Part shown: in pieces, positions 1,905 to 7,698 of the stretch
Numbering within the stretch: the first letter of the stretch is position 1
How the letters are laid out: each line of letters opens with the position of its first letter
Assembly (NCBI RefSeq): GCF_003334335.1
Contig: NZ_QOWQ01000012.1
DNA: 64,000 nucleotides
Origin: Escherichia coli
Lineage (GTDB): Bacteria > Pseudomonadota > Gammaproteobacteria > Enterobacterales > Enterobacteriaceae
Direction: 5' to 3' (one strand)
Made by a program: the position numbers and the translations under genes
The notes under the pieces: generated by a model
What the model was told of the DNA's origin: nothing
What the model saw: only the letters and a program-made list of their open reading frames with translations
Database searches by the model: none

Positions 1905-3062
1905 TCAGGACGCGGGGATAACCAACGGTTTATTCCCGCTTAGCTCGGTCACCAGGTCATTGATGCCATCGCTCATATTTTTAAAGCGCGTCAACGGCGA
2001 ACGAGTGACCACCACAAACGCGCCAATATTCTTCTGCGGGATCATCGCCATATAGGTAATGAAACCGCCACCACCGCCTGTCTTCTGAATAATCCCCGGA
2101 CGACCCTCTTTCGGGGCCATATATACCCAACCTAAACCAAGCGCATCCGCTTTGCCGGGGACATCCATGCCAATCACTTTCGTAAACTGCGCGCGCTGAT
2201 AAATCAACGTCTGCATGCGATCTGCCTGGTTACTGCGCTGATAAAAATCAGATGACAAATACTGCTGCATCCAGCGCATCATATCGCCAGGCGTGGAATA
2301 GACGCCGCCGCTGCCAATTGCCGCCAGCGTGTTATTGCACGGACTGGCACCGCGCTCAGCAACCATTAAACGGCGGCACTGATCCGGTGAGGGGGTGTAG
2401 GTGGTGTCTTTCATCCCCAATGGACGGGTAATCTGCTCTTCAAACAACTGGGTATAAGGCTTGCCGGACGCATTCGCCAGTGCATCTGCCAGCAGGTCGA
2501 ACGCAAGGTTAGAGTACGCCGCCTGACTGCCTGGCGCGGCTTTCAGCTTCGCCGTAGAAAGGTATTTCCAGCGTTGCTCGCGCGTTGGCCAGACAAACAC
2601 CGGACGATGTGCCGCGCCACCGGGCTGTTCACGGGGCAGGGCGCTGGTATGGGTTGCCAGATTGACCAGCGTAATGGGCGTCCCATTGTAGGTTGGCACG
2701 CGTGCGCCTGGCGGAGCATATTTACTTAGCGGATCGTTTAACTTCACGGTCCCCTGGTCGAGCAATTTCACCAGCATCTCACTGGTCATTAGCTTGGTGA
2801 GGGAAGCAATACGCACGACCGAATCCAGCTGCGGGCGAACGTTATTACCAGGTCGCGTTTCGCCATAACTGCGAAAGACGCGCTGGTTACCGTCGATAAC
2901 AACCAGAGCCATCCCCGTGGCACCGCTGCCGTAAAAAATATGATCGGCATAACGATCGACAATATCAGAGGCAAACTCCGGTTCAGTGATCGGCTGCGCC
3001 GCATGGACGGAGGTCAATGACGCCGCACACAGCACGGCAGAAAAAAGCAGACTACGTTTCAA
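1905..3062 (-). CDS. ampH: penicillin-binding protein AmpH (class C beta-lactamase-like, DD-peptidase)
   Basis: 385-aa ORF with signal peptide (MKRSLLFSAVLCAASLTSVHA) and beta-lactamase-fold motifs; length and sequence match recalled AmpH; tail-to-tail with yaiV. Confidence 0.93.
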   Translation of the reverse strand: MKRSLLFSAVLCAASLTSVHAAQPITEPEFASDIVDRYADHIFYGSGATGMALVVIDGNQRVFRSYGETRPGNNVRPQLDSVVRIASLTKLMTSEMLVKLLDQGTVKLNDPLSKYAPPGARVPTYNGTPITLVNLATHTSALPREQPGGAAHRPVFVWPTREQRWKYLSTAKLKAAPGSQAAYSNLAFDLLADALANASGKPYTQLFEEQITRPLGMKDTTYTPSPDQCRRLMVAERGASPCNNTLAAIGSGGVYSTPGDMMRWMQQYLSSDFYQRSNQADRMQTLIYQRAQFTKVIGMDVPGKADALGLGWVYMAPKEGRPGIIQKTGGGGGFITYMAMIPQKNIGAFVVVTRSPLTRFKNMSDGINDLVTELSGNKPLVIPAS

Positions 3063-3413
3063 CGGTGGTGTCCATAGATTGAATGAAGGTAACTGAGCGT
3101 ATTTATACTACTCATTGATAGATTGCAAAGGGCGAATTAGTGCAATAATAGTGTTAAAAACGTAACGGCGCGTAAACACGATCTTTTTCCTGCTCACCAA
3201 TGCCTGCATTTGTGATCCTGCGCGTGTTAATCCGCTTATGTAAACAATCTTTGGTTTGTGAAATCCGTCGAAACAATTCTTATGGTCAGGCTGGCGAACT
3301 AAGCGCCTTGCTATGGGTCACAATGGGCGGTTTCATTTGGCTGACGCTTTGTAGCGGTCATGCGGTTAATACACAGCAGTTGTTAAAACGATAAGAAGTT
3401 AGCAGGAGTGCAT

Positions 3414-4634
3414 ATGTTTAAGTCTTTTTTCCCAAAGCCGGGAACGTTTTTTCTCTCGGCCTTCGTTTGGGCATTGATTGCCGTTATCTTCTGGCAAGCC
3501 GGTGGGGGTGACTGGGTGGCGCGTATCACCGGCGCTTCCGGGCAGATCCCGATTAGCGCCGCGCGTTTCTGGTCGTTGGATTTCCTGATTTTTTACGCTT
3601 ACTACATTGTTTGCGTAGGACTTTTTGCATTGTTCTGGTTTATCTACAGCCCGCATCGTTGGCAATACTGGTCAATACTCGGTACTGCACTGATCATCTT
3701 CGTCACCTGGTTTTTGGTGGAAGTCGGGGTCGCCGTCAACGCCTGGTATGCGCCGTTCTATGATCTGATTCAAACCGCGCTAAGTTCGCCGCATAAAGTC
3801 ACCATCGAACAATTTTACCGCGAAGTGGGCGTCTTTCTGGGGATTGCGCTGATCGCTGTGGTGATCAGTGTGCTGAACAACTTCTTTGTCAGTCACTACG
3901 TGTTCCGCTGGCGTACAGCGATGAACGAATATTACATGGCGAACTGGCAACAACTGCGTCATATCGAAGGGGCCGCACAGCGTGTGCAGGAAGACACCAT
4001 GCGTTTTGCTTCAACGCTGGAGAATATGGGCGTCAGTTTTATCAACGCCATCATGACGTTGATCGCCTTCCTGCCGGTGCTGGTAACGCTCTCCGCGCAT
4101 GTGCCGGAGCTGCCGATTATCGGGCACATTCCGTATGGTCTGGTGATTGCCGCAATCGTCTGGTCGCTGATGGGGACCGGATTGCTGGCAGTGGTAGGGA
4201 TCAAACTGCCGGGGCTGGAGTTTAAAAACCAGCGTGTAGAGGCTGCCTACCGTAAAGAGCTGGTTTATGGTGAAGACGATGCCACGCGCGCGACGCCGCC
4301 TACGGTACGCGAGCTGTTTAGCGCCGTACGGAAAAACTATTTCCGCCTCTATTTTCACTATATGTATTTCAACATCGCCCGCATTCTCTATTTGCAGGTC
4401 GATAACGTTTTCGGTTTGTTCTTGCTGTTTCCGTCAATTGTTGCCGGTACGATTACGCTCGGCCTGATGACGCAGATTACCAACGTTTTTGGTCAGGTTC
4501 GCGGTGCTTTCCAGTACCTGATTAACTCATGGACCACACTGGTTGAGTTGATGTCTATCTACAAACGTCTGCGCAGCTTTGAACATGAGCTGGATGGTGA
4601 CAAAATTCAGGAAGTAACCCATACCTTGAGCTAA
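3414..4634 (+). CDS. sbmA: peptide antibiotic / antimicrobial peptide importer SbmA
   Basis: Polytopic membrane ORF starting [24 protein letters not shown]; ATG at 3414 sits 5 nt after AGGAG (3404-3408); 406 aa as recalled for SbmA. The track start at 3408 is an upstream GTG. Confidence 0.93.
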
Positions 4635-4646
4635 AAAGGAGAAGTA

Positions 4647-5741
4647 ATGTCGCGCGTCAATCCTCTATCTTCGCTGTCATTGTTGGCGGTTCTGGTTTTA
4701 GCGGGGTGTAGTAGTCAGGCTCCGCAACCGTTGAAAAAGGGCGAAAAAGCGATAGATGTAGCGAGCGTCGTGCGGCAGAAGATGCCTGCGAGCGTGAAAG
4801 ACCGCGATGCCTGGGCGAAAGATCTCGCCACCACCTTTGAAAGTCAGGGGCTGGCACCGACGCTGGAAAACGTCTGCTCGGTGCTGGCGGTGGCGCAGCA
4901 GGAGTCAAATTATCAGGCAGATCCGGCCGTTCCGGGCTTAAGCAAGATCGCCTGGCAAGAGATTGACCGTCGTGCTGAACGGATGCACATTCCTGCTTTT
5001 CTGGTTCATACCGCGCTAAAAATCAAATCGCCAAACGGCAAAAGTTATAGCGAACGGTTAGATTCGGTGCGTACAGAAAAGCAATTGAGCGCGATTTTTG
5101 ACGATCTGATCAACATGGTGCCAATGGGGCAGACGCTGTTTGGTTCGCTCAATCCGGTGCGCACCGGTGGGCCGATGCAGGTCAGCATTGCTTTTGCCGA
5201 ACAGCATACCAAAGGGTACCCGTGGAAAATGGACGGTACAGTCCGTCAGGAAGTCTTCAGTCGCCGCGGCGGGTTGTGGTTTGGTACTTACCATTTACTG
5301 AATTATCCCGCCAGTTATAGCGCACCGATATACCGTTTTGCTGATTTTAACGCTGGCTGGTACGCCAGCCGTAATGCCGCGTTTCAGAACGCGGTCAGTA
5401 AGGCCAGCGGCGTGAAGCTGGCACTGGACGGTGATTTAATTCGTTACGACAGTAAAGAACCCGGGAAAACCGAACTGGCAACGCGCAAACTGGCTGCAAA
5501 ACTGGGGATGAGCGACAGCGAAATTCGCCGTCAGTTAGAGAAAGGTGACAGCTTCTCTTTTGAGGAGACGGCGCTGTACAAGAAAGTTTATCAACTTGCC
5601 GAAACGAAAACGGGTAAATCACTCCCCCGCGAAATGTTGCCTGGCATTCAACTGGAAAGCCCGAAAATCACCCGCAACCTGACTACGGCCTGGTTTGCGA
5701 AGCGCGTAGACGAACGGCGGGCGCGTTGTATGAAACAGTGA
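4647..5741 (+). CDS. yaiW: lipoprotein YaiW (co-transcribed with sbmA)
   Basis: 364-aa ORF with lipoprotein signal (…LAGCSSQ lipobox); begins 12 nt after the sbmA stop, implying an operon. Confidence 0.9.
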   Translation: MSRVNPLSSLSLLAVLVLAGCSSQAPQPLKKGEKAIDVASVVRQKMPASVKDRDAWAKDLATTFESQGLAPTLENVCSVLAVAQQESNYQADPAVPGLSKIAWQEIDRRAERMHIPAFLVHTALKIKSPNGKSYSERLDSVRTEKQLSAIFDDLINMVPMGQTLFGSLNPVRTGGPMQVSIAFAEQHTKGYPWKMDGTVRQEVFSRRGGLWFGTYHLLNYPASYSAPIYRFADFNAGWYASRNAAFQNAVSKASGVKLALDGDLIRYDSKEPGKTELATRKLAAKLGMSDSEIRRQLEKGDSFSFEETALYKKVYQLAETKTGKSLPREMLPGIQLESPKITRNLTTAWFAKRVDERRARCMKQ

Positions 5742-5758
5742 TCAAACAGGAATGTCAG

Positions 5759-5790
5759 GCCAGATAAGGCGTTTCAGGCCGCATCTGACA
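5759..5790. repeat. degenerate REP-like palindromic element between convergent yaiW and yaiY
   Basis: ggccagataaggcgtttcaggccgcatctgac resembles the REP consensus (gccggataaggcgtttacgccgcatccggc). Confidence 0.4.
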
Positions 5791-5799
5791 ATGTAAAAC

Positions 5800-6108
5800 T
5801 TACTGGCGGCGATGTCGCCAGTGCAGCCATAGCGCCACCACTGCAAAAATGAGGCAGCCTACTAAAAACGGGATCAGCCCGAAAATGGTGCCGACACCTA
5901 AACCAATTTCCACCCGTGGGCGACCTGTTTCCTGGACCTGCATTAAACGCTCATAGACGCCGGGCGCATGCACTAACAGGTTCAGCAATTGCGCCCCAGC
6001 CCAAAAGCAAAACAGCACAAACAACGCATAGGCAATGTTGCCAGGCGTTGAAGAGGCATTGCGATATTTTCCGCTAAACAGCGATTTTGACAGGGTGAAA
6101 TCAGCCAT
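5800..6108 (-). CDS. yaiY: small inner-membrane protein YaiY
   Basis: 102-aa ORF with two hydrophobic segments; matches recalled YaiY. Confidence 0.85.
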
Positions 6109-6367
6109 AAAAACCTCCGGAAGTCATCTGCTTCTCTTCTGGTGTGATACCAGCGGCTTATGGCAAGTCTGACAGGTCATTTAGATTGTCAATATCAGAA
6201 TCATGGTAAATTGATGTTGGGAATATTCCCGAAGCGTGAATCTTCGTTGTGAGTCACAAAATGGCAACCTTAAGTTAAATTTATTAACAATTACGAAAAT
6301 GTTGTCTACACCACAGACGGTTGTTGCAGAATATGCAAGGATGTTGTTTTTCGTTAACGGAGCTGCC

Positions 6368-6580
6368 ATGAATCTGCCTGTAAAAATCCGCCGTGACTGG
6401 CACTACTATGCGTTCGCCATTGGCCTTATATTCATTCTTAATGGCGTGGTGGGGTTACTGGGATTTGAAGCAAAAGGTTGGCAGACCTATGCCGTCGGTC
6501 TGGTGACGTGGGTGATTAGTTTCTGGCTGGCGGGGTTGATTATTCGTCGTCGCGATGAAGAAACTGAAAACGCCCAATAA
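6368..6580 (+). CDS. yaiZ: small membrane protein YaiZ (70 aa)
   Basis: The 114-aa track ORF trimmed to the ATG at 6368 gives the 70-aa protein MNLPVKIRRDWHYYAFAIGL... with two transmembrane segments, as recalled for YaiZ. Confidence 0.75.
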   Translation: MNLPVKIRRDWHYYAFAIGLIFILNGVVGLLGFEAKGWQTYAVGLVTWVISFWLAGLIIRRRDEETENAQ

Positions 6581-6597
6581 GAATATTATCGGGCGTT
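6569..6597. terminator. hairpin between convergent yaiZ and ddlA (candidate bidirectional terminator)
   Basis: aacgccc-(15 nt loop)-gggcgtt inverted repeat flanked by A/T; overlaps the yaiZ stop codon. Confidence 0.45.
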
Positions 6598-6603
6598 AAA
6601 ATA

Positions 6604-7698
6604 TTACATTGTGGTTTTCAATGCGTTATCCGCAGCGTGACGCTCCAGCGCCAGTTCAATCAAACGTGTGATCAGATCGGTGTAACCCAGACCGCTGGCT
6701 TGCCACAGCTTCGGATACATACTGATATTAGTGAAGCCAGGCAGGGTGTTGATCTCGTTGATCACCACTTCGTTCTCTGGGGTTAAAAACACGTCTACAC
6801 GCGCCATGCCTGCGCATCCCAACGTTTGATAAGCCTGAACGGCAATCGCCCGGATCTTATCGTTGATTTCTGGCGCAATGGCTGCCGGAACTACCACTTT
6901 CGCGCCATCTTCGTCAATGTACTTGGTGTCGTAGGCATAGAAATCGCTGGTGAGTACGATCTCTCCACAGGTGCTGGCTTGCGGATTGTCGTTGCCCAGA
7001 ACTGCGCATTCGATCTCACGACCTTTGATCCCTTGCTCAACGATCACTTTATGATCGAACTCGAACGCCAGATCGACGGCAATTGCGTACTGTTCTTCAC
7101 TGGTTACTTTGCTGACACCAACAGAAGAGCCCTGATTAGCCGGTTTTACAAACAGTGGTAACCCCAGTTTAGACTCCACTTCGGCAAAACTAATGTTGTG
7201 ACGATTGGCGCGCGTCAGGGTAATAAATGGCGCAATGTTCAGCCCGGCATCGCGTAGCAGACGTTTGGTGACATCTTTGTCCATACAGGCTGCTGAAGCC
7301 AGAACATCAGAACCTACAAACGGTAAATTGGCGACCCGCAGCATTCCCTGCAAGGAACCATCTTCGCCCAGCGTACCGTGGACAATCGGGAAAATGACAT
7401 CCACCGTCGGCAACGGCTGACCGTTTTGCGCGTCGATAAGCTGATGCTCATGTTTACCTGGCACCTGCGCAAGGCTGGTCGCCGAAGGGCGCAACGCAAT
7501 ATGGGCAGGATCGTCTGCATTTAGCAGATAATTGCTGGCATCGCTGACGTGCCATTGCCCTTGTTTATCAATGCCCAGCAGCACAACGTCGAAGCGACTT
7601 TTATCAATGGCATCGACAATGTTTTTTGCCGATTGCAGAGACACTTCATGTTCCGCTGATTTACCACCAAAAACGATTCCTACCCGCAGTTTTTCCAT
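6604..7698 (-). CDS. ddlA: D-alanine--D-alanine ligase A
   Basis: 364-aa [34 protein letters not shown]..., ATP-grasp family; matches recalled DdlA. Confidence 0.96.

Follow-up and report, generated by a model that had tools for sequence, protein, structure and literature searches.

The sbmA-yaiW operon of Escherichia coli pairs a peptide importer with a divergent lysozyme-like lipoprotein

Results

Organization of the sbmA-yaiW locus

We analyzed a 64,000-nt stretch of the Escherichia coli chromosome (the window), in which sbmA and yaiW follow each other on the plus strand and face the convergent gene yaiY. This stretch is carried by 5421 of 5426 complete E. coli genomes; over 3 kb, several chromosomes of the species match the window at 100% identity. 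The RefSeq annotation names yaiW, and the K-12 annotation of the pair is b0377/b0378. The genes and their borders are as follows.

3404-3408, plus strand: Shine-Dalgarno sequence AGGAG of sbmA, 5 nt ahead of the ATG; GCAGGAG is kept in the upstream alignment
3414-4634, plus strand: sbmA, ATG at 3414 and TAA at 4632-4634, 406 aa
4635-4646, plus strand: intercistronic spacer AAAGGAGAAGTA, 12 nt, with the Shine-Dalgarno sequence AAGGAG of yaiW at 4636-4641
4647-5741, plus strand: yaiW, ATG at 4647 and TGA at 5739-5741, 364 aa, Pfam DUF1615, outer-membrane lipoprotein
5758-5824, plus strand: REP-like palindromic sequence between the convergent yaiW and yaiY
5800-6108, minus strand: yaiY, convergent with yaiW

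As read from the sequence, AAGGAG lies 5 nt ahead of the yaiW ATG. The 12-nt spacer holds this Shine-Dalgarno sequence and leaves no room for a terminator or a promoter, and a pattern scan of the spacer and its flanks returned no promoter-like or terminator-like site. The RNA across the junction (4600-4680) has less structure than its shuffles (z +1.36), the only hairpin being a weak one (-8.5 kcal/mol) within the signal-peptide codons of yaiW. Terminator-like hairpins within sbmA and at the start of yaiW have low stability (-5.6 to -8.5 kcal/mol) and poor T-tracts, and we did not count them as functional. A single 627-aa SbmA-YaiW fusion protein (P0007) forms a cluster of one member and was taken as a frameshift or assembly artefact.

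The transcript probably ends at the REP-like sequence beyond yaiW, which does not qualify as a canonical intrinsic terminator: the sequence after yaiW folds no more stably than its shuffles (z -0.67). The sole Rfam match over positions 2900-6700 was to the REP-derived naRNA4, at 30.3 bits and thus under the gathering score of 59.5.

That sbmA and yaiW form an operon is already known; the unit is annotated, experimentally described and repeatedly cited. Co-transcription of yaiW with sbmA in the same operon is stated, as a secondary citation, in PMC6284057, bioRxiv 2024.10.29.620885 and PMC10145973, each citing Arnold et al. 2014 (J Bacteriol 196:436). The two genes are listed as one sigma-E-induced unit, with 2.2-fold and 1.8-fold induction (PMC2731931), sbmA is among the sigma-E promoters that have been studied (PMC3326320), and yaiW is stated to be regulated by CpxR as well as by sigma-E (PMC13284718). 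According to PMC6284057, loss of YaiW also lowers uptake of, and sensitivity to, the proline-rich peptide Bac7. As this phenotype is in print, the peptide-sensitivity check on a yaiW deletion suggested in a preliminary description of the locus has already been published.

The same description had placed the two genes on one strand with a gap of exactly 12 nt, which the coordinates confirm, and had read them as a two-gene operon. That reading holds, given the Shine-Dalgarno sequence that yaiW has of its own, the 12-nt spacer, the lack of a terminator, conservation across Enterobacteriaceae and the published co-transcription. It was also right that pairing with a lipoprotein is well known at the sbmA locus (co-transcription, sigma-E membership and the Bac7 phenotype are all in the literature), and its remark that the role of the lipoprotein is poorly defined was fair. 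Compared with the published E. coli/Salmonella unit, the genes, their order, their strand and the 12-nt spacer are the same. The operon itself is no different, and what we add is the assignment of a fold and motifs to YaiW and a map of where the pairing is held or broken.

The peptide importer SbmA

SbmA is an inner-membrane, proton-driven peptide importer of the SbmA/BacA (SLiPT) family, in agreement with its RefSeq annotation. It scored 777 bits against NCBIfam NF008306 (cut-off 492), matched Pfam PF05992 with an E-value of 1.1e-167, and aligned over its full length (residues 1-406) to the cryo-EM structure PDB 7p34 (909.5 bits, E 2.6e-273). The only Pfam matches along its 406 aa are SbmA_BacA and ABC_membrane_2; the protein is an ABC-type transmembrane domain without a nucleotide-binding domain. 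The mechanism of proton-driven SLiPT import has been described (PMC8442886, PMC13316013). BacA of Sinorhizobium and Brucella, the orthologue of SbmA, belongs to the same SLiPT family and imports Bac7 and NCR peptides (PMC12912959). The papers on BacA covered here mention no YaiW-type partner, as would be expected if the transporter works independently of the lipoprotein.

Conservation of the pairing

We compared the 80 closest loci listed across species, 41 of Enterobacteriaceae type with sbmA and 39 without sbmA in the fetched flank. Among these listed matches, the junction is tight in 36 of the 41 loci with both genes: the gap ranges from -1 to 32 nt (mode 14), and an AGGA/GGGA-type ribosome-binding site is found in all 36. 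The synteny across Enterobacteriaceae that the preliminary description proposed to check is therefore borne out in these two-gene loci, and the conservation of the junction makes the arrangement more than chance.

The pairing is lineage-restricted and not universal. In the other five of the 41 loci, among the matches listed, an opposite-strand emrRAB-like cluster (marR/emrA/emrB-like) sits between sbmA and yaiW; the hosts are Buttiauxella, Shimwellia, Cedecea, Dryocola and Enterobacter sp. Ag1. The 39 yaiW loci without sbmA in the fetched flank, again among the matches listed, come from Serratia, Rahnella, Hafnia, Pantoea, Erwinia, Lonsdalea and Pseudomonas, and the neighbours of these stand-alone yaiW genes vary. 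Consistent with this, P. aeruginosa PA14 has YaiW and no SbmA homologue (PMC12147183). As yaiW stands alone in many taxa and is split off by an efflux cluster in five genera, it can be expressed on its own.

These broken pairings raise the possibility that the adjacency is a lineage-specific juxtaposition: yaiW would be an independent envelope gene that landed downstream of sbmA in an ancestor of the core Enterobacteriaceae, with co-transcription by read-through and shared phenotypes that are indirect. Besides the stand-alone loci, the PA14 genome and the five interrupted loci, this account can draw on the structural papers on SbmA, which describe a self-sufficient transporter and leave YaiW unmentioned. 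It sits poorly, however, with a tight junction in 36 species of many genera (among the matches listed), with the joint response of both genes to sigma-E, and with reports that yaiW mutations are selected by the same agents as sbmA mutations, namely Bac7, KFF-PNA and streptomycin. We consider a mere juxtaposition rather unlikely.

YaiW is a lipoprotein with a divergent lysozyme-like core

YaiW matches Pfam DUF1615 (PF07759) over residues 50-363 with an E-value of 6.5e-155. Its parts map to the window as follows.

4647-4709, plus strand: lipoprotein signal peptide MSRVNPLSSLSLLAVLVLAG followed by the lipidated C; lipobox LAGC, with LVLAG preceding C21-S22
4779-5432, plus strand: lysozyme-like (GH23/SLT-like) core, residues ~45-262
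4902-4907, plus strand: E86-S87 of the core, SLT motif I
4938-5156, plus strand: helical insertion of ~73 residues (98-170) between SLT motifs I and II
5169-5180, plus strand: G175-P-M-Q178 of the core, SLT motif II
5346-5357, plus strand: F234-N-A-G237 of the core
5433-5738, plus strand: C-terminal, mostly helical region, residues 263-364

The lipobox is also found in orthologues. The sorting of lipoproteins according to the residue at position +2 is well established, and Ser at +2 after the lipidated Cys21 points to Lol sorting to the outer membrane. Labelling of YaiW with palmitate has been reported (bioRxiv 2024.10.29.620885).

Searches by sequence for a function of YaiW (NCBIfam, PHROGs, phmmer and profile searches of the PDB, and Pfam for each of the 61 homologues) returned only DUF1615 or noise. 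Foldseek gave nothing significant against the PDB, and only unnamed DUF1615 or lipoprotein entries against AFDB50. YaiW nonetheless has the lysozyme-like alpha-helical fold. In the structure model, E86-S87 ends a helix spanning residues 73-87. This pair is conserved in 59-60 of 61 homologues, and HHalign pairs E86 with E64 of MltE. Of the same 61 homologues, 58-61 also keep three further stretches of the core: G175-P-M-Q178, G213..L217 and F234-N-A-G237.

With the intact YaiW core, HHalign aligned motif I alone to SLT domains, at 36-48% probability; global alignments past motif I were unreliable and we did not use them. A deletion scan peaked at residues 98-170, which correspond to the insertion and form helices 98-112, 117-123, 134-140, 144-157 and 161-165 in the structure model. 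Once the insertion was removed, the SLT motifs (G-L-M-Q, G-x-x-Y-L and A-Y-N-A-G) came into register at 94-95% HHalign probability, controls having been run, for an excision chosen post hoc with the motifs already seen. The distance between motifs I and II is 89 residues in YaiW, as against 16 in MltE, 15 in Slt70 and a canonical value of ~15.

Neither YaiW nor any of the 61 homologues matched the Pfam SLT profile at E <= 0.1. For this reason we call DUF1615 of YaiW a divergent relative of the lysozyme-like GH23/SLT superfamily with the same fold, and not a filed member of the SLT family. Eight lytic transglycosylases are recognised in E. coli, and YaiW is absent from that list (PMC10139938). 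A close comparison is with MltE/EmtA and MltC of E. coli, outer-membrane-anchored family-1 lytic transglycosylases with an SLT domain (GH23). Unlike them, YaiW carries the ~73-residue insertion between motifs I and II, a ~100-residue extra C-terminal region and an Asp (Asp233) directly before the F/Y-N-A-G motif, and it has been reported as surface-exposed. Such exposure sits uneasily with a role as an enzyme of peptidoglycan in the periplasm.

The C-terminal region lies outside the ~140-150 residues that align to lysozyme-like structures; its Cys361 is invariant and, judging from co-conservation with Cys77 of the catalytic-type helix, the two may be joined by a disulfide. YaiW can also be set beside the GH23 chitinase of Ralstonia sp. 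A-471 (PDB 3w6b) and goose-type lysozymes, with the differences that sequence identity is only 12% and that the substrate is chitin, not peptidoglycan.

We infer that YaiW binds or cleaves a GlcNAc/MurNAc-type glycan, most likely peptidoglycan, and that this activity, rather than a transporter-like one, underlies its effect on peptide entry. Cleavage might proceed by hydrolysis, as in lysozymes and chitinases, or yield anhydro products as in lytic transglycosylases. Taken to its full extent, this reading makes YaiW/DUF1615 a candidate active glycosidase or lytic transglycosylase of peptidoglycan (or of a GlcNAc polymer). It would be the ninth enzyme of the lytic-transglycosylase type in E. coli and would found a new SLT subfamily marked by a helical lid inserted into the domain. 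Envelope stress would induce it together with SbmA, and its glycan cleavage would explain the lower sensitivity of yaiW mutants to Bac7, lacritin N-104, KFF-PNA and streptomycin. We hold this joint reading tentatively, as a possibility short of a probable one.

Alternatively, YaiW could have kept the lysozyme-like fold without enzyme activity and serve as a surface binder of cationic peptides or of glycan, an outer-membrane receptor or entry aid for the peptides that SbmA imports. A binder of this kind would suit a protein reported to be surface-exposed and selectively retained on an N-104 peptide column, and whose loss cuts Bac7 internalisation (PMC6284057); the 73-residue insertion and the C-terminal region would provide new surfaces beyond the catalytic core. 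Yet the catalytic-type Glu and the substrate-binding motifs are near-invariant among homologues of only 31-51% identity, which argues for retained chemistry rather than a scaffold, and a soluble globular lipoprotein domain offers no evident route for a peptide across the outer membrane. We regard a non-enzymatic role as rather unlikely.

Candidate promoter and upstream region

The region upstream of sbmA contains two further elements, which we examined in an alignment of 24 Enterobacteriaceae sbmA upstream regions.

3258-3279, plus strand: conserved upstream element GTGAAATCCGTCGAAACAATTC, ~16 nt upstream of the -35-like box
3295-3322, plus strand: candidate sigma-E-type promoter (GAACTAA-N16-TCACA), with -35-like CGAACTA at 3295-3301, a 16-nt spacer and -10-like TCACA at 3318-3322

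Transcription of the operon would most likely start at this candidate promoter, ~92 nt upstream of the sbmA ATG. A relaxed scored scan ranked this site as the best match to the sigma-E consensus in the 351-nt ampH-sbmA intergenic region, whereas the strict pattern GAACTT-N14-18-TCNAA had no match in the window. The motif CGAACTAAG ... GGTC(T/A)(G/C)A is kept in ~19 of the 24 aligned species, most of them showing TCTGA or TCTCA, the canonical forms; E. coli itself has a -10 box (TCACA) that differs from the TCTGA of its relatives. None of 44 stand-alone yaiW loci has a sigma-E-type motif upstream, which gives no ground for regarding sigma-E control as ancestral to yaiW.

The core of the upstream element, GAAACAATTC, is kept in most of the 24 aligned regions. 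The element resembles a CpxR-type GTAAA-N5-GTAAA repeat and, from its sequence, is possibly a regulator site or an UP element.

That yaiW is instead transcribed mainly from a promoter of its own in the 3' part of sbmA (e.g., a Cpx-dependent one), giving two overlapping transcription units, is improbable. In its favor, stand-alone yaiW genes must carry their own promoter, yaiW is stated to respond to CpxR as well as to sigma-E, and weak sigma-E-like matches occur inside sbmA (e.g., at 3940 and 4610). Against it, those matches are no better than the expected background, a sigma-70 scan found no promoter-like site in sbmA, the papers cited above report co-transcription, and the sigma-E induction of the two genes is similar.

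Discussion

We propose that sbmA and yaiW act as a bicistronic operon of the core Enterobacteriaceae. Transcription would most likely start at the conserved sigma-E-type promoter, which lies ~90 nt ahead of sbmA and may receive other inputs as well, and traverse both genes, yaiW being translated from its own Shine-Dalgarno sequence in the spacer. The transcript would end in the REP-containing gap ahead of the convergent yaiY. The cargo that homodimeric SbmA takes across the inner membrane to the cytoplasm comprises proline-rich peptides, microcins and peptide-PNA conjugates. After export, YaiW would receive its lipid at Cys21 and be sorted to the outer membrane. Taken jointly, the operon, its likely sigma-E-type promoter, SbmA as the importer and YaiW as a divergent lysozyme-like lipoprotein form an explanation that we consider highly probable.

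Resistance to proline-rich antimicrobial peptides, peptide-PNA antisense drugs and aminoglycosides repeatedly involves sbmA and yaiW, so what YaiW does matters for understanding its origin. With the fold assigned here, a DUF lipoprotein that some papers call an 'outer-membrane transporter' becomes a candidate cell-wall glycosidase with a specific catalytic-type residue, Glu86. If YaiW is active, both the inventory of E. coli lytic transglycosylases and the reading of yaiW phenotypes would need revision.

The sbmA-yaiW operon

The region studied is chromosomal E. coli DNA. Its 3-kb segment 3100-6100 matches several complete E. coli genomes at 100% identity and was found at ≥80% coverage in 5421 out of 5426, where it is annotated as sbmA, yaiW and yaiY. 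The K-12 record (b0377 sbmA, b0378 yaiW) has an identical layout. Among 5450 matching places, 28 lie on records labelled plasmid, and near-full copies also occur on two records outside the 5421 genomes; either the copies are truly carried on plasmids or the replicons are mislabelled. The features read from the sequence are:

3414 (ATG) to 4632-4634 (TAA), + strand, sbmA
4635-4646, + strand, spacer AAAGGAGAAGTA, with AAGGAG 5 bases 5' of the yaiW start codon
4647 (ATG) to 5739-5741 (TGA), + strand, yaiW

The 12-nt gap and the gene coordinates in the preliminary description are exact. SbmA scores 777 bits against its NCBIfam equivalog model (cut-off 492), matches Pfam SbmA_BacA and aligns over its full length (1-406, 909.5 bits) with the solved SbmA structure 7p34. 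An in-frame GTG at 3408, two codons 5' of the annotated ATG, gives a 408-aa open reading frame in the mechanical list; the ATG of the 406-aa form has the better-placed AGGAG and is the start used in RefSeq and in the solved structure. YaiW is a DUF1615 protein over its full length, and its lipoprotein signal peptide ends in LAG, followed by C21 and then Ser.

The spacer is too short for a terminator plus a promoter. At the junction, a pattern scan placed neither a promoter-like nor a terminator-like site, and RNA structure there was below that of shuffled controls. According to papers citing Arnold et al. (2014, J Bacteriol 196:436), yaiW is co-transcribed with sbmA, YaiW is palmitate-modified and surface-exposed, and yaiW mutants show reduced Bac7(1-35) uptake and sensitivity. 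The spacer, the scan and the reported co-transcription support the two-gene operon proposed in the preliminary description, an operon that is already known; the deletion phenotype suggested there as a check is, by the same citing papers, already published.

A small hairpin within the yaiW signal-peptide codons (4673-4690; -8.5 kcal/mol, z -3.1 versus shuffles), followed by TCTGGTTTT, falls short of the stability of a typical terminator. No canonical intrinsic terminator was found 3' of yaiW. A REP-like palindrome (5758-5824) lies between the convergent yaiW and yaiY; its Rfam naRNA4 match is sub-threshold (30.3 bits, threshold 59.5). In strain ML35 (locus L001, 1-2094), an IS3-family transposase adjoins a truncated ehaB/yaiT autotransporter pseudogene upstream of iprA-ampH, a few kb 5' of the operon.

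A putative sigma-E-type promoter upstream of sbmA

Between ampH and sbmA, the sequence that matches the sigma-E consensus best is CGAACTA-N16-TCACA (3295-3322). In aligned sbmA upstream regions, CGAACTAAG and GGTC(T/A)(G/C)A are kept at fixed spacing in ~19 out of 24 species, most of which have the canonical TCTGA or TCTCA. This conservation supports 3295-3322 as a putative sigma-E-type promoter. A published sigma-E promoter set includes sbmA (PMC3326320), a sigma-E-induced unit includes sbmA (2.2-fold) and yaiW (1.8-fold) (PMC2731931), and regulation of yaiW by CpxR and sigma-E has been noted (PMC13284718). No sigma-E-type motif was found upstream of stand-alone yaiW (0 of 44 genes). The 24-species alignment contains a second conserved block, which resembles a CpxR-type direct repeat (GTAAA-N5-GTAAA):

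3258-3279, GAAACAATTC / GTGAAATCCGTCGAAACAATTC, 5' of the sigma-E-type -35 box

Conservation of the gene pair

We scanned YaiW relatives, one genome per species, and counted the 80 closest loci. For 36 out of the 41 loci containing sbmA, the distance from its stop to the yaiW start is -1 to 32 nt (mode 14), always with an AGGA/GGGA ribosome-binding site. In Buttiauxella, Shimwellia, Cedecea, Dryocola and Enterobacter sp. Ag1, a cluster encoding MarR-, EmrA- and EmrB-like products separates the genes:

L030 (a fetched YaiW-relative locus) 2587-5790, opposite strand, marR/emrA/emrB-like efflux cluster; likewise in L036, L039, L041 and L042

This insertion breaks the operon in those five genera, and the GAACTAA box is absent from the five sbmA upstream regions. 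The fetched flanks of the remaining 39 loci (Serratia, Rahnella, Hafnia, Pantoea, Erwinia, Lonsdalea and Pseudomonas) yielded no sbmA, and the yaiW neighbours varied. P. aeruginosa PA14 has YaiW and lacks SbmA (PMC12147183). The synteny raised in the preliminary description therefore stands as a tight, strongly conserved pairing across core Enterobacteriaceae, but not as an obligatory one.

The gap is -1 in two loci (L019 at 5563, Pseudescherichia vulneris; L031 at 5971, Escherichia sp. ESNIH1), where the sbmA stop codon and the candidate start of yaiW overlap, as expected from translational coupling. One 627-aa database entry (P0007) is a single SbmA-YaiW fusion, probably due to a frameshift or assembly error.

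YaiW contains a divergent SLT-type domain

Across 61 diverse DUF1615 proteins (31-51% identity to YaiW), the near-invariant positions are Q85-E86-S87, G175-x-M177-Q178-V179, G213 and L217, and F231-A-D-(Y/F)-N235-A-G237-x-Y-x-S-R-N. Family-1 lytic transglycosylases have four signature motifs, which these positions resemble. The region encoding residues ~45-262 (4779-5432) carries the conserved E-S, G-x-M-Q, G-x-x-Y-L-like and F/Y-N-A-G motifs and corresponds to a lysozyme-like GH23/SLT-type fold.

Structure comparison list for YaiW
GH23 chitinase 3w6b, 12.6
Cj0843c, 12.4
MltF, 12.1
P. aeruginosa Slt, 11.1
Slt70, 10.7
MltC, 10.4
MltE, 9.2

We compared the YaiW core by HHalign with a small SLT-domain alignment of E. 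coli Slt70, MltC, MltD and MltF (K-12 record) and MltE (sequence checked against PDB 3t36). With the intact core only motif I aligned, E86 facing MltE E64, at 36-48% probability. Motifs I and II lie 89 residues apart in YaiW but 15-16 apart in MltE and Slt70; between motifs II, III and IV the spacings are similar. Removing residues 98-171, chosen after the motifs had been seen, raised the probability to 94.8% (E 5e-8) with all four motifs in register. When a deletion of 73 residues was slid along the sequence, the probability was highest for 98-170; deletions taking out motif I lowered it to ~9%, and 10 column-shuffled SLT controls gave ≤0.4%. We conclude that YaiW holds a divergent SLT/GH23-type domain with a ~73-residue helical insertion, followed by a ~100-residue extra region.

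Cys77 (4875-4877; catalytic-type helix) is kept in 60 of the 61 homologues and Cys361 (5727-5729; last helix) in all 61; their co-conservation and helix positions suggest a putative disulfide clamp.

YaiW is not filed as an SLT-family member because the Pfam SLT model does not recognise it. It is not among the eight recognised E. coli lytic transglycosylases (PMC10139938), and AFDB names for its family are only 'DUF1615' or 'lipoprotein'. The searchable literature yielded neither a lysozyme-like GH23/SLT-type fold for DUF1615 nor a mention of yaiW together with lytic transglycosylase.

Possible role of YaiW

SbmA is a proton-driven SLiPT homodimer whose mechanism was solved by cryo-EM (PMC8442886, PMC13316013), in papers that do not mention YaiW. 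Together with the literature, our results describe a sigma-E-responsive bicistronic unit that produces this inner-membrane peptide importer and an outer-membrane lipoprotein. Work on yaiW after Arnold et al. has linked it to lacritin N-104 peptide entry in PA14 (PMC12147183), KFF-PNA adaptation (bioRxiv 2024.10.29.620885) and a ciprofloxacin-induced DNA supercompaction phenotype (PMC13284718). It has also linked yaiW to mild streptomycin resistance, through the mutations F183I, Q186D and H187fs. These streptomycin-selected changes directly follow the G-P-M-Q motif, which fits a functional importance of that region.

We infer that YaiW may bind or cleave a GlcNAc/MurNAc-type glycan. Its lipobox, short linker and lysozyme-like domain are the architecture of Mlt lipoproteins, and peptidoglycan is therefore the most likely substrate. 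The surface exposure reported for YaiW sits uneasily with such a substrate. YaiW may have a dual topology, act on a glycan outside the cell, or bind its ligand without catalysis. Two peptidoglycan genes flank the operon, ampH (1905-3062, - strand; DD-carboxypeptidase/endopeptidase) and ddlA (6604-7698, - strand; D-Ala-D-Ala ligase); beside the lysozyme-like fold this is suggestive, but may be coincidence. As a by-product of the operon analysis, the 'poorly defined' lipoprotein YaiW becomes a candidate glycosidase of the cell wall, with E86 as its putative catalytic residue.
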